This document shows positions 2,261-24,283 of a stretch of DNA of 24,348 nt, piece by piece. Made by a program: the position numbers and the translations under genes. How positions within the stretch are numbered: position 1 is the stretch's first letter; each line of letters starts with the position of its first letter. Source of the DNA: a virus. Taxonomy: Duplodnaviria > Caudoviricetes. Location: positions 1 to 24,348 of the IMG/VR virus record IMGVR_UViG_3300032277_000077; one strand, 5' to 3'. The notes beneath the pieces are model-generated. The model was not told the origin of the DNA. It did not search any database and saw only the letters and a list, made by a program, of their open reading frames with translations.

Positions 2261-2974
2261 CTAATCGTCTTTGACCAGTATAGCTTCTAAGAAAATGCTG
2301 ACTTCGTTTTCACTAGAACTGCTTTTAGCCTCAAAGTGAAAGTCTGATTTCTCGCCTATCTTGAATGGTACTTGGCGATCAAAGCTAACTTGGCTTGTTG
2401 AAAATGTCGCTTCTGCTACTCGTAAAGTCCGACCTGCACTAGTAGTAACAACATTACGGAACGTCAAATACTTTTGCCCATTGTTAGTACCTGAGCATAC
2501 ATCAATTCTGAGTAAATATAAACTATGACCTGCGGGTACAGTGTAGACACTGGATTGGGTTGTGCCTAAAGTAGCACCGATAAATCCATAGGTTGTGCCG
2601 CCATTCGCAATTGTTATGGTACCTACGTTAGAACCTGCCAGAATAATAGCTGAATTAATACGTAGGAATGATGCTGTCGTAGTCACTGCAACTGTGCCTG
2701 TCAGGGTTACTGTCTCGCTGATCTCTGCATAGTTAGCATCTAGCCCACTGATTAATACATCCATCGTGTCGCTTGCTGATGATGATACTGCTGTCATCTG
2801 TACGGCTGATGTAGGGAATGTATAGTTCCCGCCATCATCCCAAATCGTCTCAAAGGCAGTGCCGATAGTGCGATTAAAACCAAAGATATTCAATGGTCTT
2901 GTATCCCACATATTGCCTTTGACAATATCGTGAAACAGGTGCGGTGTTGGTCTGTCTTTGTGATACTGATACAT
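2261..2974 (-). CDS. Hypothetical beta-rich phage protein, 237 aa
   Basis: Long Thr/Ser-rich ORF filling the gap between holin and endolysin. Confidence 0.75.
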   Translation of the reverse strand: MYQYHKDRPTPHLFHDIVKGNMWDTRPLNIFGFNRTIGTAFETIWDDGGNYTFPTSAVQMTAVSSSASDTMDVLISGLDANYAEISETVTLTGTVAVTTTASFLRINSAIILAGSNVGTITIANGGTTYGFIGATLGTTQSSVYTVPAGHSLYLLRIDVCSGTNNGQKYLTFRNVVTTSAGRTLRVAEATFSTSQVSFDRQVPFKIGEKSDFHFEAKSSSSENEVSIFLEAILVKDD

Positions 2975-2975
2975 T

Positions 2976-3347
2976 TTATTTCCTCATATTCATTAGCTTG
3001 CTAACACCTTTGATGCCAAAGCTAGAGCTAATCGCAATAAACAAAAGATACTGATACCACTCAGGCAAGCCAGATAGCGCGGTAAAGCCTTGCTCTACTC
3101 TGTCGATAACAGTCACATCATTAATAATAATAGCATAGCCAATCATAAAAATAGGCACTGCCAAAACTACTGTCCAGAACTCGTCTTTCCAACTGTGTGC
3201 AGAGGCATCAACTGCTTTAGATTCCCAGTCGGCATCATTCTTTATCATGTTCATTTTGGCTTTGTGTTTAGCCTGTTTCTCTTCTGCCTTGTTCTTCATG
3301 TAGCCACCTGCTAACTTGGCTACTGGTGCAATTAAATTCATCCACAT
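2976..3347 (-). CDS. Putative holin (3TM/GTA-holin-like), 123 aa
   Basis: Hydrophobic segments around SWKDEFWTVVLAVP and LPEWYQYLLFIAISSSFGIK with a basic tail; start at ATG 3347 after AGGAG. Confidence 0.7.
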   Translation of the reverse strand: MWMNLIAPVAKLAGGYMKNKAEEKQAKHKAKMNMIKNDADWESKAVDASAHSWKDEFWTVVLAVPIFMIGYAIIINDVTVIDRVEQGFTALSGLPEWYQYLLFIAISSSFGIKGVSKLMNMRK

Positions 3348-3361
3348 GGTTTGTTCTCCTG

Positions 3362-3832
3362 TTATAAAGGCATGGCTAGGGCATCTAATGCCTGCCAAAT
3401 ATCATCATACTCCGTTTTGGCAGTATCCCAATTAGCCTTAATCTGATTTACATCTTCAACGACTAACTCAGCCTTTGCAACTATTGCTCTCATAGTCTCA
3501 ATATCTTTCTCTAGCTTAGATACGCTTGTAGTGATTTCTAAGAGCTTTTCTTGTTGAGAGGATATAGTTGTCAGGTTTGTTCCTAAAGTGGCTAATTTCG
3601 CGCTTAAATGGCTTATATCGTTGTCTTTAAGCTGTTGTTCTATTAGCTGTATAGATTCATGCAAAGGGGCTACGTCTGGAACGCTTACCGCCTCGACCGC
3701 TTCTAGTCTTCCATACAGACTTGATGCAGTCCAAACACCCCCGCCAATGGTAGAGCCAATCGCCAAAACCACCATAATCCATGCGCCCTTAAAAGTCTGA
3801 CCGCCTATCTTCAACTCACTGTCTTCAATCAT
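3362..3832 (-). CDS. Membrane-anchored coiled-coil protein, 156 aa
   Basis: N-terminal TM (AWIMVVLAIGSTIGGGVW) then heptad-rich helix; ATGA overlap with the upstream gene. Confidence 0.75.
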   Translation of the reverse strand: MIEDSELKIGGQTFKGAWIMVVLAIGSTIGGGVWTASSLYGRLEAVEAVSVPDVAPLHESIQLIEQQLKDNDISHLSAKLATLGTNLTTISSQQEKLLEITTSVSKLEKDIETMRAIVAKAELVVEDVNQIKANWDTAKTEYDDIWQALDALAMPL

Positions 3833-4662
3833 TGCTCACAATCCATCTCAAAGAAACAATCATAACCCATACCAATAGGTGATGTTTTGTAGAACTCTGA
3901 CTCTGTACCTAGTGCAAGAATATCTGCTTCGCTGTAGTACATATCAAGTCCGTAATTACCACTGCCGTTAAGCATCACGACTGTTAGGTTTCTAGTTGTG
4001 TTGTAGCCCATCGCTACCCACTGCGCTCCTGCATCATAGAAAATATTAACATCAGCAGATGTAGTGTTGTTATCCTCTATCGACTGCTGTAGAAAATCTG
4101 CGGCTTCGCTGTTTGCTACGGCTAAGTAAGCTGATGCTTCGTTAGCTGATGTCTCGATCTGGTCAACACTGGTATTGTATGTTTCTACCTCTTCCTGAGT
4201 GATCGTCAGCATATCCTGATTTTCAACAACAAAGGTCTGCACTTCTTCTTCTTGTTTGGGGGTGCTTGCTGTTTCTGCTTTCTCTGCTACCTGCTGTACT
4301 GCGATCATATCAACAACCACTTCTGTAAACGTACCGATAGCTACATCCATTTCCTCTAATGAATCCATAGCCATATCTTCTAGCACCTGCTGTACTGGCG
4401 CGCCATAAGGCTGATAGTTAGCAAAGTTTTCAACAGCTAGATTGTAGGCATCGACCTGCTCTGTCGTAATGTGCGCCGTGCTAGATAAAGTGCCATCAGA
4501 AAGACCGCCGCCAGTGTGCGCGTAATCCATACCTGCGCCAACTAGCTTAACGCCAGTATCAATCTGATCGACAATAGCAGAACTGCTATCAATCAGGTTA
4601 TCTAATTCACTGCTTTGTACTGCGGTACTTATCGCTAATAGAAATATTATCTTCTTGAACAT
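3829..4662 (-). CDS. Acidic secreted/periplasmic hypothetical protein, 277 aa
   Basis: Signal peptide MFKKIIFLLAISTAVQS; very D/E-rich; C-terminal Cys pair CFFEMDC. Confidence 0.75.
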   Translation of the reverse strand: MFKKIIFLLAISTAVQSSELDNLIDSSSAIVDQIDTGVKLVGAGMDYAHTGGGLSDGTLSSTAHITTEQVDAYNLAVENFANYQPYGAPVQQVLEDMAMDSLEEMDVAIGTFTEVVVDMIAVQQVAEKAETASTPKQEEEVQTFVVENQDMLTITQEEVETYNTSVDQIETSANEASAYLAVANSEAADFLQQSIEDNNTTSADVNIFYDAGAQWVAMGYNTTRNLTVVMLNGSGNYGLDMYYSEADILALGTESEFYKTSPIGMGYDCFFEMDCEQ

Positions 4663-8564: not shown

Positions 8565-11176
8565 TAGCCTGGATACCTCGCAAAAGTCAAATAAAAATCA
8601 GGCGACTCTATTGTTTCTGTACCATTGCTAATTTGTAATTTATATGTATCCATAAAAAAGAAGCTACTATTGAAATATGAACTATTGAGTTCAAATCTAA
8701 CAAAAACATTGGGTCTATCTATTAAGGCATCCATTTGAGTAGCTATATTGTCAAACAAACCATCTTCATAGATTACTTCGCCATCGACTACTGTACCATT
8801 GCCATCTAAAGGTCTTACTGCATTTCCTGTTGTGTAAAATGTTGCGGTTCCCATAGTTCTAAAGTTATGTGTTGATGATGAGGAGCCTTCTGCTACCATG
8901 ACAAGATTATATGTATAAGTTGAACGCAGTCCAAAGGCATATTGTGCATTAAAGAAAATATCAATAAACATTCTTGAAGAATTAGGTCTTATTGGTGGAT
9001 TTCTCAGGGCATTACTTACATTTACCAGTTGTGCGTACGTGTGTTTTAAGTCGTCTTTATATTCAAAACTTATTGAATCTACTACATTTCCACTACTATC
9101 TACCTGCTGAAAAATTATCTCATCACCGCCTACAGGTGGATTTCCGCCATTTGCTAAAGTTATTTCTTCTTCTGTCGGCTCTGTTAATGCATTTTCAGTT
9201 TCAACAAATATGACAGGTGCTTGGTCTGGCTCTATAACTATTCTTCTGTGGTCTTCGCTTATAGTAAACTCAGAAGAAGCTATGTCAGAATATACACCGC
9301 TAATGTTTACTGCTTGGCAAGTGACCCTAAAAATTCCTTTACGCCTATCGACTAAATCAATTAGGTGATTGACTCTAAAGCCAAAGTCTCTAGTCAAAGT
9401 AAACTCTTGAGAGTCAGTTAAGTATCTTTGATGCCCTGATGCGCCACTGTAAGGTAATTTGTAAACGTGAATCTGATAGTGCGTTATATATGGGCTAGGA
9501 TTATCGTTGATGCTTAATTGTAGTTTAGGTGTAGAGTTACCATCGTCATCCATCACAACATAAAACCCTGCATCAATGCTTGTTGGCGCATCAACAGTCT
9601 TACCGTCATAGCTATTAACGCCTTGCGTAGCAGGCACATCTATCGCAGAAGATGTATCATAAATGGTTGCATTAGGGTCATCTTCGACAGCAGTTATATC
9701 AACATATACACCAAGCTCAGGGTCAGGAATAATCTGCAAGTGCTGAATCTCAAAAACCTTTTCTACATAACCAAACTTGCTGTAAGTAATTTTGACGTTA
9801 TCACCTACCTTAAATCTCATGCCTGTGAGGTTTAGCTTAAGGTTTATGGTTGCTTGTTGCCTAGACTTACCTAATGTGACATAAGCTATTCTTTGCGCCC
9901 TAAAATGATTGGTTGTCATTGGCAGGTCTACATCTAATGTAAGAATCTCACCATCATCTGCAATGTAAGTTGCCACGTCTCTTATCGGGTAGTCAGTAGC
10001 AACATAGTTAGCATCTTCATTATTAAATTGACCTTTGACCGTATTGTACTGATTGCGTCTTGATGTCTTGGTTGATAGGCTAATGCCGCCAATCATCATA
10101 TCCTCTGTTATTGTTGTCGATTCGCTCACCTTTGAATCGCCTACAGCAGACATAAAAAAAGCACCTGATGAATAGTAAAGTTTACCTATCATTGTTGAAA
10201 GGATGTTTTCAATGTTTGTAGATAGCTTATTACCTGAATCAATTACACCATCGCAAGTGTATCGCTTGTGCGTAGTGCTAAGGAAACTTACATCATCATC
10301 ACAAATGTTTATGCAGGTTTCTAAGGCATCTAAATTGAAGCTGTCCATTGGCTCGCCTAAACCATAAACAGGGTCTCTCATGTAATCTAATAAGCATAAA
10401 GCAGGGATATTAGAGAATGTCCAAGTCTGTGGCTGATTTTCCCTATGAGATGAAACACCTAAACTAGAATCATATATATCTGAAGTGCTGTCTTTTCTTG
10501 GGTCGTAAACTTTTCTGCCATCTACGACAAAAGATACATTAGGCATACCGTTTGCAAACTTTTCCTGATCGTATCTAAGGCGTACCATGACATAAGCAAT
10601 ACCCTGTAACTTATGAGATGAAGTCCAAGCAGGATTAAAATCAGAATATAAACTAGGGTCATGTGACGTTTGTGAGCCGTCATAAAACTTCATGTATACG
10701 TAGGGTGACTCTGTTGCGCTAGTGCTTGCCCACCCTGACTCATAAGTGAACGTATTAGTAGAATTGTTATAGGTAGCTACTAATTCATCGTTGAAATAAA
10801 CCTGATGCAATCCCTCTAACGCGGCAACAGGATTATTGTTATAAGAATAAGTATGCGCTGTGTCAGCTATAGCGTAGGCGTGATATAAATACTGATTCCC
10901 TTGCCCCTCAGTGCCAGAAAAAACAATAGTTCCACCAACTCTAGTTCTACCGTAAATTAAACGTCTAGTAGCTACTGAGTTTTTGGCTGAGATCGTTGTC
11001 CCGCCCTGACCTGCATTTAAAGTAGGAATCTCACCTTTAGGCATCAAGGCTCTTGATACTGCACCTAACGCAGTGAATGCCGCAGTAGTAGCAACAAAAG
11101 CACCAAGAGTCATGCCACCTGCCGCTATTGCCGCGCCTGTTGCTGATATTAAACCCGCTACTAATGATACTGCCAT
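8564..11176 (-). CDS. Tail tip/central fibre hub protein (lambda J / GTA-like)
   Basis: 870 aa; RRLIYGRTRVGG, LQGIAYVMVRLRYD, GRKVYDPR, NIPALCLLDY and YTCDG motifs; follows Dit and L-like genes. Confidence 0.85.
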   Translation of the reverse strand: MAVSLVAGLISATGAAIAAGGMTLGAFVATTAAFTALGAVSRALMPKGEIPTLNAGQGGTTISAKNSVATRRLIYGRTRVGGTIVFSGTEGQGNQYLYHAYAIADTAHTYSYNNNPVAALEGLHQVYFNDELVATYNNSTNTFTYESGWASTSATESPYVYMKFYDGSQTSHDPSLYSDFNPAWTSSHKLQGIAYVMVRLRYDQEKFANGMPNVSFVVDGRKVYDPRKDSTSDIYDSSLGVSSHRENQPQTWTFSNIPALCLLDYMRDPVYGLGEPMDSFNLDALETCINICDDDVSFLSTTHKRYTCDGVIDSGNKLSTNIENILSTMIGKLYYSSGAFFMSAVGDSKVSESTTITEDMMIGGISLSTKTSRRNQYNTVKGQFNNEDANYVATDYPIRDVATYIADDGEILTLDVDLPMTTNHFRAQRIAYVTLGKSRQQATINLKLNLTGMRFKVGDNVKITYSKFGYVEKVFEIQHLQIIPDPELGVYVDITAVEDDPNATIYDTSSAIDVPATQGVNSYDGKTVDAPTSIDAGFYVVMDDDGNSTPKLQLSINDNPSPYITHYQIHVYKLPYSGASGHQRYLTDSQEFTLTRDFGFRVNHLIDLVDRRKGIFRVTCQAVNISGVYSDIASSEFTISEDHRRIVIEPDQAPVIFVETENALTEPTEEEITLANGGNPPVGGDEIIFQQVDSSGNVVDSISFEYKDDLKHTYAQLVNVSNALRNPPIRPNSSRMFIDIFFNAQYAFGLRSTYTYNLVMVAEGSSSSTHNFRTMGTATFYTTGNAVRPLDGNGTVVDGEVIYEDGLFDNIATQMDALIDRPNVFVRFELNSSYFNSSFFFMDTYKLQISNGTETIESPDFYLTFARYPG

Positions 11177-11628
11177 TATTCGCCTATATATTTACTGTAG
11201 ATGCGCTCTATCTGTTTGAAGCCCATACGTTCTAATAGTTTGTCAAACGGCTGATGTATCTTCGTATTTATTATCATCAAAGACACGCCCATTTGCGTTA
11301 ATTGTTCTTCTGCGTACTTTATCAGTTTATAGCCTGCACTACCATTCCTGTGGTCAGGGTGTATGAAGATAACATCATTAATAGCAAACTTGTGGTCTTG
11401 ATAGTGCATAGATGTGCTTACTGTTACAGCAAAGTAACCGACTAGCTTACCATCTTGCCTCGCAGTAAATAGCTTTAGGATGCCTGATTCATCAAGATTA
11501 ACGTACTCAGCCCAGTTTGGATTGAGTTTGATTTTGTCTTTGTTTAACGCTATTAGTTCCCAGTGTAATTCTAACAGGCTTTGCATTTCTTTCTTAACAA
11601 ATACTAGCCTCTCTAATGCAAACTCCAT
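11176..11628 (-). CDS. GNAT-fold acetyltransferase-like protein
   Basis: DGKLVGY strand, motif A-like IFIHPDHRNGSAGYKLIKYAE, C-terminal LERMGF. Confidence 0.75.
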   Translation of the reverse strand: MEFALERLVFVKKEMQSLLELHWELIALNKDKIKLNPNWAEYVNLDESGILKLFTARQDGKLVGYFAVTVSTSMHYQDHKFAINDVIFIHPDHRNGSAGYKLIKYAEEQLTQMGVSLMIINTKIHQPFDKLLERMGFKQIERIYSKYIGE

Positions 11629-18726: not shown

Positions 18727-19473
18727 TTAATCAAAAACTGGTCTGAACCTATGGCGGCAGTTATAGCCACCTGCTGTAGCAAATGCGTTTGAACTACTTT
18801 TACCTGCCCACTCGCCTTGCCAAATTTCTCTAATCTCATCTATTGTGTAAACTTTATTAACGTGCTTCTGGCAAAAGTCTCTTGTTACTTCGTCATCTGC
18901 GCCTTTATAAATAAACTTTTCTGCTCCTGAATCTAAAGCAACTTTAACATTAACTGTTCTATCAAACTGCGTTAAAGAATCATGTACTTGTTGCTTAACA
19001 TATCTACCCATGCCATCTGCGACAGTAGCTTTAACTGCGGCAACACTAGCGGCAAATGTAGTTCCTGTTAATGTGCTTTCATATACTTGCTTTGCTAAAA
19101 CATCAAGATACTCAACACCTAAATCTTCAAGTCCCTGAAACGACATTAATTGTAACTGGCTAATAACATCAGGGTCTAAATCTATAACATCGCCATAAGT
19201 GCCTAACATTGTTACAGCATCATCAGCTACGCCTTTATAATCTCTTACAATGCTATCAACTTCTGTTAAGTATTCTTCTGTAATAATCTGTCTCAACTCA
19301 ACTCTAGCATTTAACGCCCATTGTAAATCAAACAACTCACCATCTTTTAGCGGTGCAGTAGCCATTAGGTCTGCAACCCTATCTTCCATTTTTACTAACG
19401 CAGAGGCGATGCGCTCTTCATGTCTTTCAGCCAACCTTTCAACAATGCTGTAGTGGTCAGTATCAGCCGCCAT
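18727..19473 (-). CDS. Head morphogenesis / minor capsid protein (SPP1 gp7 / Mu F-like)
   Basis: After the portal; C-terminal D..TRDFC...GGYNCRH motif. Confidence 0.8.
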   Translation of the reverse strand: MAADTDHYSIVERLAERHEERIASALVKMEDRVADLMATAPLKDGELFDLQWALNARVELRQIITEEYLTEVDSIVRDYKGVADDAVTMLGTYGDVIDLDPDVISQLQLMSFQGLEDLGVEYLDVLAKQVYESTLTGTTFAASVAAVKATVADGMGRYVKQQVHDSLTQFDRTVNVKVALDSGAEKFIYKGADDEVTRDFCQKHVNKVYTIDEIREIWQGEWAGKSSSNAFATAGGYNCRHRFRPVFD

Positions 19474-20851
19474 TAGTTATTTCATCCGCAAAGTTGCCAA
19501 TGCGCTGTGAGCCTGCTTCTATTTCTGTATGCGCTTTTACTAACGTATCATCATCTAAAATAAGATCTGCAATCTTCTTATCAATCTCTTGCGCTAATGT
19601 TTCAGACTGTACGCCAGTTGCTCGCATTTGCTGTAAAAATACTAACTCTTTGTCATAGTCTCTTAGGTCGAACGCATCAGGATAAAACACTTCTACGTCA
19701 TTGGTTACTTGTTGCCACTGACAGAACAGGTCAAATATCTGCTCTTCTGCTAGTTCCAATATATCTGCTTTCTCAGCCAGTTTAGCGTTTAGCATCTGGA
19801 ACTCTGTCTGCATCGCTACGCCTGACTGTGTCATTGCCTGTGTGCCACGCACTGCGCCCATGTGAGCCATACGGTTAATAGATTCTACCTTGTCCTTAAT
19901 AGACTTCATTACAGCATCAAGGTTCGCCCCTGACGGTTGCATCTGGTACGGCTTTAGGTTGCCATCCATATCATCAGGCAGGTTAATGATTGCGCCTGCA
20001 CCTGCACTAGCATCTGTCTCGAACGTCTTAACTAGCGTTGGGTGATTACTAATACGAATCAACTGCTCTACTTCTGATAACTCTTGGTATATAGCGCGTT
20101 GCATATAAGACACATCAGAAATATCGCTTGTACCAATGCCACGTAAAGGTGAACGGTTAGCAGGTAGGAAAACAGCAGGTATCTTGCCTAGTGTGTTGTC
20201 GATAGTCTCTAGGTGCTGTTCTTCATTGTTAGTGGCTCGCCAAGTCTCAATAGTATCTTCGCGCCATACTCTGTAATAAACCTCAGTTTCAGTGTGACTA
20301 ATGCGGTCTACTGATTCCCTAACCTTTAAGTAGACTAGCTTATGTCTGCCACTAGCTGTACGCTCATACTTCCAATCAAATACATTTTCGGGGGTGATTA
20401 GAGTTATATAAGGTCTAATCTCTTGCTCTAGTTCTTCTGCCCTTGTAGATGCATTAGACTGCGGCTTATCAATCATTAGCCAAACGTGACCATAAACGCT
20501 AGACCATACCTGCGCCTGTCTCATAAACGCATCAAAGCTACGACCATCTAAATCAGCATCTTTTAAAAATGGTTGCAGTGATGAATCATTAGCTAGGTTG
20601 CCAAATGCTCTTGTAGGCGGTACGCGCCATAGAAAGCTAGAGTAAATGTGGACAATGTTCTTACAGTGATTGTCCATTGGAGTAAGGTCTAAACGCCTTG
20701 CATATTCGTCTTTGTCTTCTGAGATGTAGCTTGTTAGGTAGCCACCATCTTTATAATCTTCACCACCCATGTAGCTTCTTAGATAAAAAGACCATCTGTG
20801 CTTGTAGTCTTCGTATATTGGGTGTGTGTTGTCAATTACGCTGTTTTCCAT
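19463..20851 (-). CDS. Portal protein, ~462 aa
   Basis: After TerL (TGATG coupling); YMGG, DADLDG, YGHVWLMID, LGKIP and SGVA motifs. Confidence 0.88.
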   Translation of the reverse strand: MENSVIDNTHPIYEDYKHRWSFYLRSYMGGEDYKDGGYLTSYISEDKDEYARRLDLTPMDNHCKNIVHIYSSFLWRVPPTRAFGNLANDSSLQPFLKDADLDGRSFDAFMRQAQVWSSVYGHVWLMIDKPQSNASTRAEELEQEIRPYITLITPENVFDWKYERTASGRHKLVYLKVRESVDRISHTETEVYYRVWREDTIETWRATNNEEQHLETIDNTLGKIPAVFLPANRSPLRGIGTSDISDVSYMQRAIYQELSEVEQLIRISNHPTLVKTFETDASAGAGAIINLPDDMDGNLKPYQMQPSGANLDAVMKSIKDKVESINRMAHMGAVRGTQAMTQSGVAMQTEFQMLNAKLAEKADILELAEEQIFDLFCQWQQVTNDVEVFYPDAFDLRDYDKELVFLQQMRATGVQSETLAQEIDKKIADLILDDDTLVKAHTEIEAGSQRIGNFADEITNGG

Positions 20852-22077
20852 CAAGTCCACCTAGTCGGTTGTGTGGTGTTATATTCAGTTCTGATCGGGA
20901 ACAAATACTCTACCAAATAGCCTAACGCATCATTCATGTGGTCAGTGCCATCTTTATTAGGAATACTTGTACCCTCTTTATATGTCTGTCTTTCTAAACT
21001 CTTAATGGTTTGCTTGCACTTTGGGCTAACAAACAAATGCCGTTCACCATCTCCAGATAACAAACGACTGTTTACCGCATTGATTCTATCCCTGACCAAT
21101 GGGTGAGCTTTCTTCGCCTTAACGCTAAATCCTGCGTTTTGTAAGATCGACAAATCAGTCCGACCACCTGCGCTTGTTTTGCGCTGTCTTGATGCGGGGT
21201 CAGGGTAGATAATACAGTGCCGATCAGGATACCTATCCTTTATCTCAGCAACCATCTCATCAGTGTTTGACCCATACATTACAATCTCATCTATCGCCAG
21301 TAAGTCTTGTCCATGCCTCAAGCATATAACAGCACTCATTGGGTCTAAGTTGAAATCCATGCCAATATGTAAAGTGCCACCAGTATCTTCTATAGGTTGT
21401 ACTGACAGTTCTCTACTAAATGCATAATATATCAAACCAGAGTAAGTAACAAATTCTGCGCAGTATTCTTGGTTAAAAGTGCGCTCATCTAAGTCCATTC
21501 TGGCTTGTTCTATTTCTTCTTCTGGTACGTTGCCACCATCAATGGTTGTATATTGATAACTCTCCCAACCATCTTGCGCTGTTAAACCTGTTGCCCATAA
21601 GTCATAGAAATGGTTTCTGCCTTTAGGCGTACCGATAAACAATGATCTGGTCGGGCTGTCCTCAGTATGCCTATCAGATAAACTTGGTCTAATAACTTCG
21701 CTCCAAGTTTCAGGCTTCATATCTGCAAACTCATCTAGCACTACAAAGTCTAATGCTCTACCGCGTAGGTTGTTAGGCTTCTCTGCGCCTTTAAGGCTAA
21801 TGGTCGAACCGTTAATCAGTTTGATCGTTAACGCTGTCTCATTAGTCTTAGCTATGTATTCTTCTGGGATAGTGTGAATCAGCATATCCCAAGCAATCTC
21901 TTTAGCAGAGCCATAGGTGGGGGCGATATACCATACGTTTCTATTCTTACCGCCAATAGCCGCCCTAAGTATTTCTATGGTAGACAAAAACGTCTTGCCA
22001 AACCTACGCCCTGCAACAACAGTTCTAAATCTAGCAGGTGATGTAAATATCTCAGTCTGAGGGGTTGTCAGTAGCAT
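20851..22077 (-). CDS. terL: Terminase large subunit
   Basis: Walker A VAGRRFGKT, Walker B FVVLDE, motif GTPKG, RNase H-like GMDFN and DHMNDA. Confidence 0.95.
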   Translation of the reverse strand: MLLTTPQTEIFTSPARFRTVVAGRRFGKTFLSTIEILRAAIGGKNRNVWYIAPTYGSAKEIAWDMLIHTIPEEYIAKTNETALTIKLINGSTISLKGAEKPNNLRGRALDFVVLDEFADMKPETWSEVIRPSLSDRHTEDSPTRSLFIGTPKGRNHFYDLWATGLTAQDGWESYQYTTIDGGNVPEEEIEQARMDLDERTFNQEYCAEFVTYSGLIYYAFSRELSVQPIEDTGGTLHIGMDFNLDPMSAVICLRHGQDLLAIDEIVMYGSNTDEMVAEIKDRYPDRHCIIYPDPASRQRKTSAGGRTDLSILQNAGFSVKAKKAHPLVRDRINAVNSRLLSGDGERHLFVSPKCKQTIKSLERQTYKEGTSIPNKDGTDHMNDALGYLVEYLFPIRTEYNTTQPTRWT

Positions 22078-22429
22078 TGCTTAATACAATATTCAATGGT
22101 GGTATTTCTAAAGGCTCTTGCTGTTCTTCTTTCCAACCGCCCTGCGTTTTCAAATAAAAGATATTAGCTGATACATTACCTGCTTTAGCTAACTGCACTA
22201 GGTTACTACCCATGCTTGCTATCTGTTTAACTTTACCCTTTTTATATGCGGTATTTACTTCTGGCTGTCGCTTCTCTACTTCTCTTAAAGTTTTCTCTGT
22301 TATACCGAAATAATCAGCTACTTGGCTTTTGTTAAGTACAGCAGATAGTGCCTGTAGTTCTATGATCTGTTGATCGGTAAATACTACTGGTGGTCTGCCG
22401 CCCCCTTCGCCTTGTTTGCCATTCTTCAT
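22052..22429 (-). CDS. terS: Terminase small subunit
   Basis: GGGRP N-terminus, HTH (KSQVADYFGITEKTL), GNVSANIFYLKTQGGW; overlaps terL. Confidence 0.8.
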   Translation of the reverse strand: MKNGKQGEGGGRPPVVFTDQQIIELQALSAVLNKSQVADYFGITEKTLREVEKRQPEVNTAYKKGKVKQIASMGSNLVQLAKAGNVSANIFYLKTQGGWKEEQQEPLEIPPLNIVLSNATDNPSD

Positions 22430-22431
22430 AT

Positions 22432-23508
22432 TTATCCTACATATTCAAAAGATGCTGTTAATCTTTCAGTAGATGTTGCTTTAGTTTTATTGCTAAACCC
22501 ACTGCTTTTGCCTGCGGGCTGTACTCTTGACGGCTTTCTAACCATAAGCCAGTTTTTAGATTGTTGCAGTCCATGTATAAAATTAGGCGCAGATGTAACA
22601 AGTCTTATTCTGCATCCATCTGTTTTGTATTTTTTCGCTAAAACTGACATAAACTTTCCACCTATCCCTATTCCTTGATAATCAGGCTTTACAACTATCC
22701 TATGTATTCTTTTGCAGTTTTTCACTTTTGCGTGTGGAAAATGCAAAAAGCTACACCATGCAACTGGTTCACCATCGATTTCTGCAATATATCTATGCGC
22801 TGATTTGTTATGTTCAGCACTTAAATAATGAAACTCTTTAAATAATTTCCATTCTGATTGGTCTGCTTTACGGATATTGACTTTAATATCTGGTCGCCTA
22901 AGACGCCCCCGATAAAACTCTTTTTTATTGACATCATATACCCAGTCAGGTTCTAACCATTCTTCAATATCATAATGACAAGAAACAGCTATAAATTGTT
23001 TATCTTCTTTTCTGATAAATTTTTGTATAGCCGAACTACCAATCTGTGCGACTTGTCTATCAACAACAGATGTAAACTCGTCATATATAACTGGTTTATC
23101 AGTTTCCAATATTAAACGCGCCAATTCTGCGCGCATCTTTTGACCGTTAGATAATACACCAAACGGCTTTAACCAATCTGGCGGGCTTGAAAAACCAACC
23201 TTTGATAATGCTTCGGTTATTTGCTTTGGCGACAGCCCATCTTCAAAGTCATCAATAATAGTTTTATCAGACCAATCAAAACCTTCAAATAATTCAAAGT
23301 CTTTAAATACATTTTTGGCTATAGTTGTTTTACCTGAACCGCTTGCTCCAACTATTAAGCCTATATTCCATTTTTCATCTTCAATCGGTATATTAACATC
23401 AAATTCTTTTTTTATAATTGAAGCATCATAATCAAATTGCCCTTTAACCTTTTCTACGCGGAAACTTGATGGAATCTTCGTTTCAATTACAAACTTTGAA
23501 CTTGGCAT
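22432..23508 (-). CDS. ABC-type ATPase fused to a C-terminal GNAT acetyltransferase domain
   Basis: Walker A GASGSGKTT, signature LSNGQKMR, Walker B VIYDEF, H-loop VSCH; GNAT with FHYLS and motif A RIVVKPDYQGIGIG. Confidence 0.88.
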   Translation of the reverse strand: MPSSKFVIETKIPSSFRVEKVKGQFDYDASIIKKEFDVNIPIEDEKWNIGLIVGASGSGKTTIAKNVFKDFELFEGFDWSDKTIIDDFEDGLSPKQITEALSKVGFSSPPDWLKPFGVLSNGQKMRAELARLILETDKPVIYDEFTSVVDRQVAQIGSSAIQKFIRKEDKQFIAVSCHYDIEEWLEPDWVYDVNKKEFYRGRLRRPDIKVNIRKADQSEWKLFKEFHYLSAEHNKSAHRYIAEIDGEPVAWCSFLHFPHAKVKNCKRIHRIVVKPDYQGIGIGGKFMSVLAKKYKTDGCRIRLVTSAPNFIHGLQQSKNWLMVRKPSRVQPAGKSSGFSNKTKATSTERLTASFEYVG

Positions 23509-24029
23509 TCATACCCCTTTTCTAGTAATTCGTTATAAACTCGTTCCTGATGGCTTTCATCTTTACAGCTAACAATAATATTAAATACTTCTTTATAATC
23601 TTCTTCTTCTAATTCTGGCTCAGTTTCTTCCAAGCCGTCTATAATTGCTGACAATTCATCATCATCAAACCCAAGCAAAGATAGATCAATATCATCGCCT
23701 ATATCCAACATTTCTAACTTTAACGCCTCATAATCCCAATCAGCATTTAAAGCTAATTTATTATCAGCAATGACATAGGCTTTGCGCTGTGCTTCTGATA
23801 ATCCTTTTAATGTTATTGTTGGCACTTTGTCCAAATTTAAAACTTGGGCGGCTTGCAATCTACCATGACCTGCTATTATACCATCTTGCTCATCTATTAA
23901 TATCGGGTTAGTAAAACCAAACTCCTTAATACTAGATGCTACTTGCTGAACCTGTTGTTCGCTATGTGTTCTACTATTATTGACGTATGGTATTAACTCC
24001 CCAGTTTCCCTATAGTTTATTTTCAACAT
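23487..24029 (-). CDS. ParB/Srx N-terminal domain protein (no methyltransferase domain)
   Basis: LIPYVNNSRTH...SIKEFGFTNPILID...IIAGHGRLQAA...ADNKLALNADWD; acidic linker and small C-terminal domain. Confidence 0.88.
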   Translation of the reverse strand: MLKINYRETGELIPYVNNSRTHSEQQVQQVASSIKEFGFTNPILIDEQDGIIAGHGRLQAAQVLNLDKVPTITLKGLSEAQRKAYVIADNKLALNADWDYEALKLEMLDIGDDIDLSLLGFDDDELSAIIDGLEETEPELEEEDYKEVFNIIVSCKDESHQERVYNELLEKGYECQVQSL

Positions 24030-24283
24030 TACAAATCTGCTCCGAACACCTGTCTGGTATTCATCTTGGGGTTCTTGATTATTATATCATGCTCTTGTGG
24101 TGGTAGTCCTTTGGTGCGGCAGTCAACCGCATCTTTCCAGAAGACTAATGCTGTTTTGATCTGATGCCCTGCACTAGGGTTCTCGATTAGGCTCTGGGTG
24201 ATCTCGTCTAGCTTAGACAATAGATCAGTCCATCCGTTCTCTTTACAAGTGTTGATCTTGTTAGTTAGCTCTAGGCTCATCAT
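24029..24283 (-). CDS. Hypothetical protein, 84 aa
   Basis: GAGGT RBS; TAATG coupling to the ParB-like gene. Confidence 0.7.
   Translation of the reverse strand: MMSLELTNKINTCKENGWTDLLSKLDEITQSLIENPSAGHQIKTALVFWKDAVDCRTKGLPPQEHDIIIKNPKMNTRQVFGADL

Follow-up and report, generated by a model that had tools for sequence, protein, structure and literature searches.

A swappable, ParB-led phage cassette encodes an ABC ATPase-GNAT fusion that probably acylates DNA and carries a conserved, predicted +1 frameshift signal at its domain boundary

We analysed a 24,348-base stretch of viral DNA (hereafter the window), which represents the late region of a tailed phage and is encoded on the minus strand. 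Along this strand, an 84-aa ORF (24029-24283) is followed by a ParB-like gene of 180 aa (23487-24029; PF02195 at residues 20-85, E 4.2e-7; phrog_620, E 6.8e-57), an ABC-ATPase/GNAT fusion gene of 358 aa (22432-23508; PF00005, E 1.5e-8; PF00583, E 2.3e-12; phrog_11143, E 4.5e-105), terS for the terminase small subunit (22052-22429; phrog_309, E 3.4e-14), terL for the large subunit (20851-22077) and the portal gene (19463-20860). These coordinates agree with the original prediction in the order of the ParB-N, ABC-ATPase/GNAT and terS genes, in the 22-nt overlap of the first two and in the 2-nt gap ahead of terS. The predicted lack of a membrane partner was likewise borne out, as the pair is flanked by the 84-aa ORF, which has no family match, and by terS, and no permease family, as would be expected of an ABC transporter, was found among the neighbours in the window or among 28 scanned neighbours of homologues. 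The 84-aa ORF marks the upstream edge of a variable slot, and its homologue lies upstream of terS or of a ParB cassette in many relatives. The block had also been described as more AT-rich than the head genes, which holds to a modest degree: its GC content is 0.35 compared to 0.39-0.45 in the head genes, but the tail genes reach 0.37-0.39, and the GC3 of the cassette pair (0.23-0.27) is near that of the capsid gene (0.27) and the spike gene (0.26). In addition, a second GNAT gene, which stands alone and encodes 150 aa (11176-11628, minus strand; PF00583, E 1.3e-8), is located in the tail region, flanked by the genes for a tail protein and the central fibre.

Motifs and fold matches place an ABC nucleotide-binding domain at approximately residues 1-201 of the fusion (22906-23508, minus strand, as are all features below), with Walker A GASGSGKT at residues 54-61 (23326-23349), the signature LSNGQ at residues 119-123 (23140-23154), Walker B with its DE at residues 143-144 (23077-23091) and the H-loop histidine H178 (22975-22977). 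The GNAT domain follows at approximately residues 205-358 (22435-22896) and contains an HYL segment (HY = H227/Y228; 22822-22830) as well as R270 and the acyl-CoA motif QGIGIG (both within 22660-22701). As had been read from the window alone, Walker A, Walker B, signature, H-loop and HY are intact, and across 66 homologues their key residues show full conservation or conservation of 90% or more. With a pLDDT of 90, the fusion is modelled confidently, the ABC domain reaching approximately residue 201 and a plain GNAT beginning near residue 205; ABC-domain fold matches cover model residues 1 to 197-212 (Z 13-15), and a Foldseek search with the whole model returned ABC domains only among the matches listed.

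The presence of an ABC ATPase and a GNAT in one gene is the hallmark of the predicted ABC-coupled GNAT (PHROG 11143), and the phrog_11143 match runs along the length of the window protein. This family is large, with 7,802 matches among 8,000 candidates scored, 580 clusters at E <1e-30 and 61 cultured-phage records. The original prediction supposed that the fusion might have been noted computationally, and this is correct: Iyer et al. 2021 (PMC7824862) describe a GNAT coupled to an ABC ATPase with a predicted acyl modification of a DNA base, with phage pT24 as an example, and trace the base-acylation prediction to 2013 (Iyer, Zhang, Burroughs and Aravind). The homologue in Tenacibaculum phage pT24, which we matched to that example by phage name, is 37.6% identical over 89% (tblastn, E 1e-53), and its record carries an internal stop. 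The published system is the same two-domain, phage-borne predicted enzyme; the passage concerned in PMC7824862 is without the ParB tail, slot interchange or frameshift described here. Neither a test of the enzyme nor a modified base turned up in the open-licence literature searched, and a term search of the main text of MetaGPA (PMC8670742) gave no match. Among cultured phages, Pseudoalteromonas phage SL25 (MF370965.1, locus 2400-4400; our locus L184) carries a 67% identical, unannotated gene, and Lactococcus phage P335 and Gordonia phage Axumite are further carriers.

ABC-ABC-GNAT tandem fusions were sought among 29 long homologues and none was found; matches in several stretches corresponded to insertions, one of them a confirmed intein. 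Three of these proteins (P0125, P0173 and P0267) have large ABC-domain insertions, the one within Walker A of P0125 being a Pfam-confirmed intein and those of P0173 and P0267 being intein-like and situated at the signature motif. A further member, P0222, is an ABC-GNAT-ASCH fusion, and P0178 has a C-terminal extension of ~500 aa behind the ABC-GNAT.

Using TerL as an anchor, we surveyed the slot, defined as the genes between the 84-aa ORF and terS, in the best 80 of 586 confirmed loci (TerL about 78-93% identical), with cargo labels taken from Pfam matches for 55 representatives and transferred from these to the others by BLAST. The slot was filled in 42 loci, empty in 27 and too short in 11, these counts referring to related loci, several of which are near-copies. 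The filled slots held an N6/N4 methylase (9 loci), Mom (PF25680; 6), a TET-containing cargo (19), TAGT with sugar enzymes (2) or ABC-GNAT (6). None of the six ABC-GNAT loci had a second cargo class in the upstream DNA examined. We placed 68 of these loci and the window (69 rows, one truncated locus being omitted) in a TerL tree, in which Mom (95% identical in TerL), TET and methylase are the cargoes of the closest neighbours of the window; ABC-GNAT requires 4 changes on this tree and all labels together 21. The proposal that the enzyme takes the place of the usual methylase in DNA modification thereby gains support, since methylase, Mom, TET/TAGT and ABC-GNAT are swapped in one slot among close relatives, and because all identified alternative cargoes are DNA base-modification families (or sugar supply), we regard this interchange as the best evidence for the function of the enzyme.

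The type of TerS tracks the presence of the cassette in 69/69 loci. Compared to the window protein, which is of the type found in cassette-bearing relatives, TerS is 56-96% identical in 42/42 filled-slot loci and 32-40% identical in 27/27 empty-slot loci, so that two TerS types alternate before nearly the same TerL. A functional connection with packaging may underlie this association, or the genes may simply have been exchanged as a block. The suggested link to packaging is common but not obligatory, as homologues are also encountered away from the terminase, in T4-like phages, jumbo phages, replication clusters and the right end of Mu-like phages. In the latter, the cassette follows the tail genes, a position akin to that of com-mom in D108. 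We considered the cassette as a com-mom replacement and found the case weak: close relatives carry an acyltransferase moron or nothing there, and the position is poor evidence because the matching right-end slot of BcepMu and vB_E433 holds an annotated O-acetyl/acyltransferase.

The ParB-like protein had been taken for a stand-alone ParB-N protein. The ParB-N domain is indeed present, but the protein is not a plain one, its last ~40 residues forming a separate, enzyme-specific domain (residues 136-180; 23490-23624) that occurs with ABC-GNAT. The N-terminal part is 52-80% identical to the ParB genes of methylase, Mom and TET cassettes; ParB-N is thus common to all cargoes while the last ~40 residues vary with the cargo. 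The ABC-GNAT type of tail recurs in a clade merely 33% identical, forms a stand-alone ORF of 49-54 aa in Mu-like phages and is fused ahead of ABC-GNAT in a single chain in 9/29 long homologues; no tail homologue was seen upstream of the pT24 and PX29 genes. Moreover, the 22-nt overlap between the ParB and ABC-GNAT genes is kept in all 63 assessable loci (of 80). The tail may bind the enzyme; a complex prediction for ABC domain and ParB tail scored 0.00, which weighs neither way. We also considered whether a slip at A_AAG_GGG could join ParB and the ATPase, and rejected this because an in-frame TGA precedes the ATG. At the position of the stand-alone tail before ABC-GNAT, a Porphyromonas phage (L181:3337-3465) has a 42-aa ORF annotated as 'acr candidate protein'.

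At the boundary between the ABC and GNAT folds, the fusion gene contains a predicted +1 frameshift signal (22896-22910), composed of a Shine-Dalgarno sequence GGGGG (22910-22906), a 3-nt spacer and CTT (22902-22900, codon 203) followed by AGG C. The linker of the window reads CGG GGG CGT CTT AGG C and conforms to the family pattern NGG RGG NNN CTT; at the linker of in-frame genes, nucleotides are conserved while residues vary. A slip at this site would append a +1-frame tail of 26 codons ending in F-I-I-stop (22821-22901; TAA 22823-22821) and thus end a putative ATPase-only product of ~228 aa, and the +1 frame likewise ends after 26-27 codons in most genes. Contigs of three DNA runs span the site with no indel. 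RNA runs matched small parts of the window, and the one mapped onto it gave no coverage of these genes.

Dereplication of 187 genes at 95% left a discovery set of 120, of which 115 have the Shine-Dalgarno motif, with CTT 3 nt on in 95/115 (background, 12% of Leu codons); the +1 frame was open to HYL in 120/120, its stop fell exactly at HYL in 119/120, and the next Ser codon was AGY in 47/48. Synonymous-codon redraws, a null that ignores phylogeny although the loci are related, gave 0.10 for the motif, 0.006 for motif plus CTT, 0.58 for the open frame and 0.32 for the stop. Independently of the linker, 90 test loci were taken by ATPase motifs only; 85 were parsed as intact fusions, and the five excluded comprised three with the motif by eye, one -1 split and one unreadable junction. 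From these we obtained a test set of 49 genes less than 60% identical to one another and to all earlier genes. Here the motif was found in 44/49 and CTT or GTT 3 nt on in 42 (CTT 31, GTT 11, the latter in about a quarter of the set), the +1 frame was open in 49/49 with a stop at the same codon in 47/49, and AGY was used in 26/26; the same kind of null, with the same disregard of phylogeny, yielded 0.08, 0.009 (motif plus CTT/GTT), 0.64 and 0.26 for motif, motif plus codon, open frame and stop, respectively. A few test genes have poorly shifting codons or no motif (5/49). The A-site codon was a sense codon in 115/115 and 44/44 genes of the two sets and varies (CGG, AGG, CGA, CAA or TGG). The residue pattern expected from the motif was furthermore detected in 103/136 distant proteins compared to 19/2,499 control windows. 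On these comparisons, the +1 ribosomal frameshift at the domain boundary is very probably real. We found no report of it for this gene in the open-licence literature searched, and the pertinent passages of GeneTack (PMC3711429) and of a BREX paper (PMC12839542) contain no description of the +1 frameshift or of an enzyme test. Breaks in four other homologues (L026, L034, L058 and L094) were rejected as frameshifts, since they lie at other, unshared positions and were taken as damage or error.

In several Firmicutes-type phages the gene is in two pieces at the same linker, with reversed (-1) polarity. In this split clade, the ATPase ORF is extended by a tail that ends in I-I-I or I-T-I, and the -1 frame holds the GNAT together with its HY; a start codon ahead of HY is missing from 13 of the 18 split loci, and G_GTT_TTT or T_TTT_TTT occupies the linker in 15 of the 18. 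The +1 layout and its mirror image, the -1 split, would each yield the full fusion and, beside it, a short ATPase; in the split clade, this short form is the default product and has all ATPase motifs.

Our preferred reading, to which we assign a probability of roughly 0.6, is that the locus is a swappable ParB-led cassette whose enzyme would acylate the phage's own DNA and would be made as two products through the conserved +1 frameshift. It builds on the gene order, the intact ATPase and acyl-CoA motifs and the cassette interchange, together with the cargo-specific ParB tail, the conserved shift signal, the open +1 frame with its fixed stop and the -1 split, all of which are apparent from sequence comparison; the chemical steps, the ABC dimer and the shift itself are what we infer. 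Taken singly, acylation of DNA is a probable activity of the enzyme, and for the short ATPase-only form to be a working subunit we see an even chance. In this model, ParB-N would load onto phage DNA late in infection, and the ParB tail would recruit an ABC dimer of short and long forms and so couple ParB to the enzyme. As ABC domains act in pairs, the short and full forms would pair with each other and so set the number of active GNAT domains per ATPase dimer. The use of ATP would open or track the DNA, as the helicase does on RNA in TmcA/NAT10, the GNAT would transfer an acyl group from acyl-CoA to a DNA base, and the resulting mark would guard against restriction in the late phase of infection and may also be recognised when the DNA is packaged. 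More tentatively, and with the odds somewhat against it in this complete form, the family may constitute a very widespread DNA-acylation machine that needs both products: a ParB-tethered, asymmetric ABC dimer with the ratio set by a prfB-type +1 slip at sense codons in most lineages or a -1 slip in others, a hitherto undescribed acylated base varied by formyltransferase or decarboxylase, and a dedicated TerS.

It is conceivable, if unlikely, that the frameshift is real and acts as an attenuator only, the short product decaying via its hydrophobic I-T-I/I-I-I end and thereby limiting a toxic DNA modifier. As modelled, the tail of a natural short form lacks order (pLDDT <50), so that it may be no more than a decay tag. 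In addition, selection acts on the stop and on the last residue: the Tyr codon that sets the final residue (Ile) of the short form is TAT in 56/60 representatives (background 0.43) and in 32/34 GC-rich representatives (background 61/236). Artificially expressed Mom is moreover toxic (PMC12707154). Against mere attenuation, the default product of the split clade is the short form with all ATPase motifs, and both products are kept under opposite polarity, which recalls tau and gamma of dnaX.

A target other than DNA, with the enzyme acetylating protein, tRNA or a small molecule (TerS, virion parts or host targets), appears improbable. Its appeal derives from the GNAT domain, which aligns over 127-139 residues to plain GNATs and finds its best fold matches (Z 13-15) in generic protein and small-molecule acetyltransferases, among them RimI and the N-terminal acetyltransferase NatA, and whose best sequence matches include polyamine acetyltransferases. 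The extension of P0178 is terminase-like by eye, w/o Pfam support, and formyltransferases occur among the neighbours, making up 26 downstream neighbours across 113 representative loci. On the other hand, the remaining identified cargoes of the slot all belong to DNA base modification or sugar supply, and homologues occur far from the terminase.

Mom-like chemistry, by which an amino acid would be passed from a charged tRNA onto adenine N6, seems more improbable again. Mom uses Gly-tRNA to yield 6-NcmdA and needs H58/Y59, R111, S124, D149 and R151 as well as an HTH-like insertion (PMC13219725). The resemblance of the HY segment to Mom that had been pointed out stands in part, as H227/Y228 are conserved and align with the HY of slot Mom proteins (E 0.015), but at low probability. 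R270 is invariant, precedes motif A and may correspond by position to Mom R111, a true Mom occupies the same slot, and formyltransferase and aspartate decarboxylase neighbours would suit an amino-bearing adduct. Membership in the Mom family was nevertheless not upheld: the window GNAT has no PF25680 match (E up to 1) and an intact canonical acyl-CoA motif, and PF25680 matches among 51 family members amount to five weak ones (best E 0.034). Likewise, hhalign against six slot Mom proteins gave a probability of 3% (0.2% with the whole protein). The best 50 fold rows, which contain no Mom, weigh neither way. The QxxGxG/GxGxG acyl-CoA loop that follows R270 is invariant, and in phage Jace the neighbours of the homologue are an aspartate decarboxylase and a CoA-transferase III domain, the latter at odds with a tRNA donor. 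Because of the non-Mom profile, the acyl-CoA loop and such accessory genes, an acyl-CoA donor is favoured. As the target we consider an exocyclic amine most likely, cytosine N4 being a weak favourite; ASCH is adjacent to or fused with some homologues, and the ASCH protein YqfB hydrolyses N4-acylcytosines.

Least probable is a linker motif that merely pauses the ribosome or starts a small overlapping gene in the +1 frame, for, although no RNA structure stimulator was detected at the shift site (z -0.21), a pause would neither keep the +1 frame open nor fix its stop, ATG, GTG or TTG was found in the +1 frame just behind the motif in 0/115 genes while +1-frame stops are common upstream, and the split clade encodes the same tail within its ATPase ORF.

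Returning to the ATP-driven acylation of DNA that we favour, several known systems provide partial parallels. In TmcA/NAT10, a helicase opens or tracks RNA with ATP, and an ATPase is joined to a GNAT as in the window protein, the two sharing an R-x-x-V-x-P-D-Y-Q-G-x-G stretch. The suggested comparison with TmcA/NAT10 did not reveal membership, however: the ATPase of the window protein is of the ABC type rather than a helicase, TmcA/NAT10 acts on RNA, the GNAT motif A match to NAT10 (E 0.0048) covers a short stretch and is equalled by other GNATs, and PF13718 scores 16.6 bits, under the Pfam cut-off of 24.6. Phage Mu Mom (PF25680, PDB 8BV8) has the GNAT fold, the N-terminal HY and the phage DNA context in common with the window enzyme, but contains the essential HTH-like insertion and no ATPase, whereas the window enzyme combines an ABC domain with an intact acyl-CoA loop.

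The shift signal resembles that of prfB (release factor 2), in which the stimulator GG_GGG or GG_AGG lies 3 nt before CUU (PMC5009743); ABC-GNAT genes have the same internal Shine-Dalgarno sequences at the same spacing before CUU, and the window heptamer CUU_AGG_C is identical to that of Ty1 (PMC5009743). In contrast to prfB, where a stop occupies the A site and the shift completes the protein, the A site here holds a sense codon and the shift would truncate. A parallel for the outcome is dnaX tau/gamma, in which a single gene yields both a short ATPase and an elongated version that carries an additional domain, with polarity reversed in some lineages; dnaX encodes an AAA+ clamp loader and uses a -1 shift or transcriptional slippage, while the present genes have an ABC domain and mostly a +1 layout, with -1 in the split clade.

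What is new here is a prfB-like +1 signal hidden in an in-frame gene, the enzyme family itself having been predicted already. As these genes look like ordinary single ORFs, no annotation flags the signal. In the reviews consulted, the principal natural example of bacterial +1 frameshifting stimulated by a Shine-Dalgarno sequence is prfB, and a signal of this type is conserved across hundreds of phage genes. The 2013 prediction of an acylated base gains direct comparative support from near-identical phages in which three kinds of DNA modifier take the place of the enzyme, and ParB plus ABC-GNAT offers a minimal two-gene system in which to test it. Codon-optimising the gene or purifying the full fusion alone would remove the short product and might miss activity.

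Several minor observations concern the tails and the alternative cargoes. The end of the +1 tail (G-x-x-L-x-x-I/F-T/I-I; 22821-22850 in the window) loosely resembles the end of the ParB tail (G-Y-x-C/L-x-V-x-x-L/V; 23490-23516), a likeness that may arise by chance from GNAT-frame codons. Other slot cargoes, found in the locus group L173 (1284-4649), L148, L132 and L163, include a PLP enzyme, an uncharacterised 366-aa gene and a kinase together with TET, as well as TAGT with an epimerase and a UDP-sugar dehydrogenase, no TET being seen in that slot. In four of the six Mom cassettes (L100:1112-1318, L142, L164 and L178), a 68-aa ORF w/o Pfam match lies between ParB and mom, and both of the ParB tails read among these cassettes end in a CPHC motif. 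Lastly, an alignment of three distinct Mom types revealed a long identical C-terminal stretch, with 28-53% identity elsewhere.
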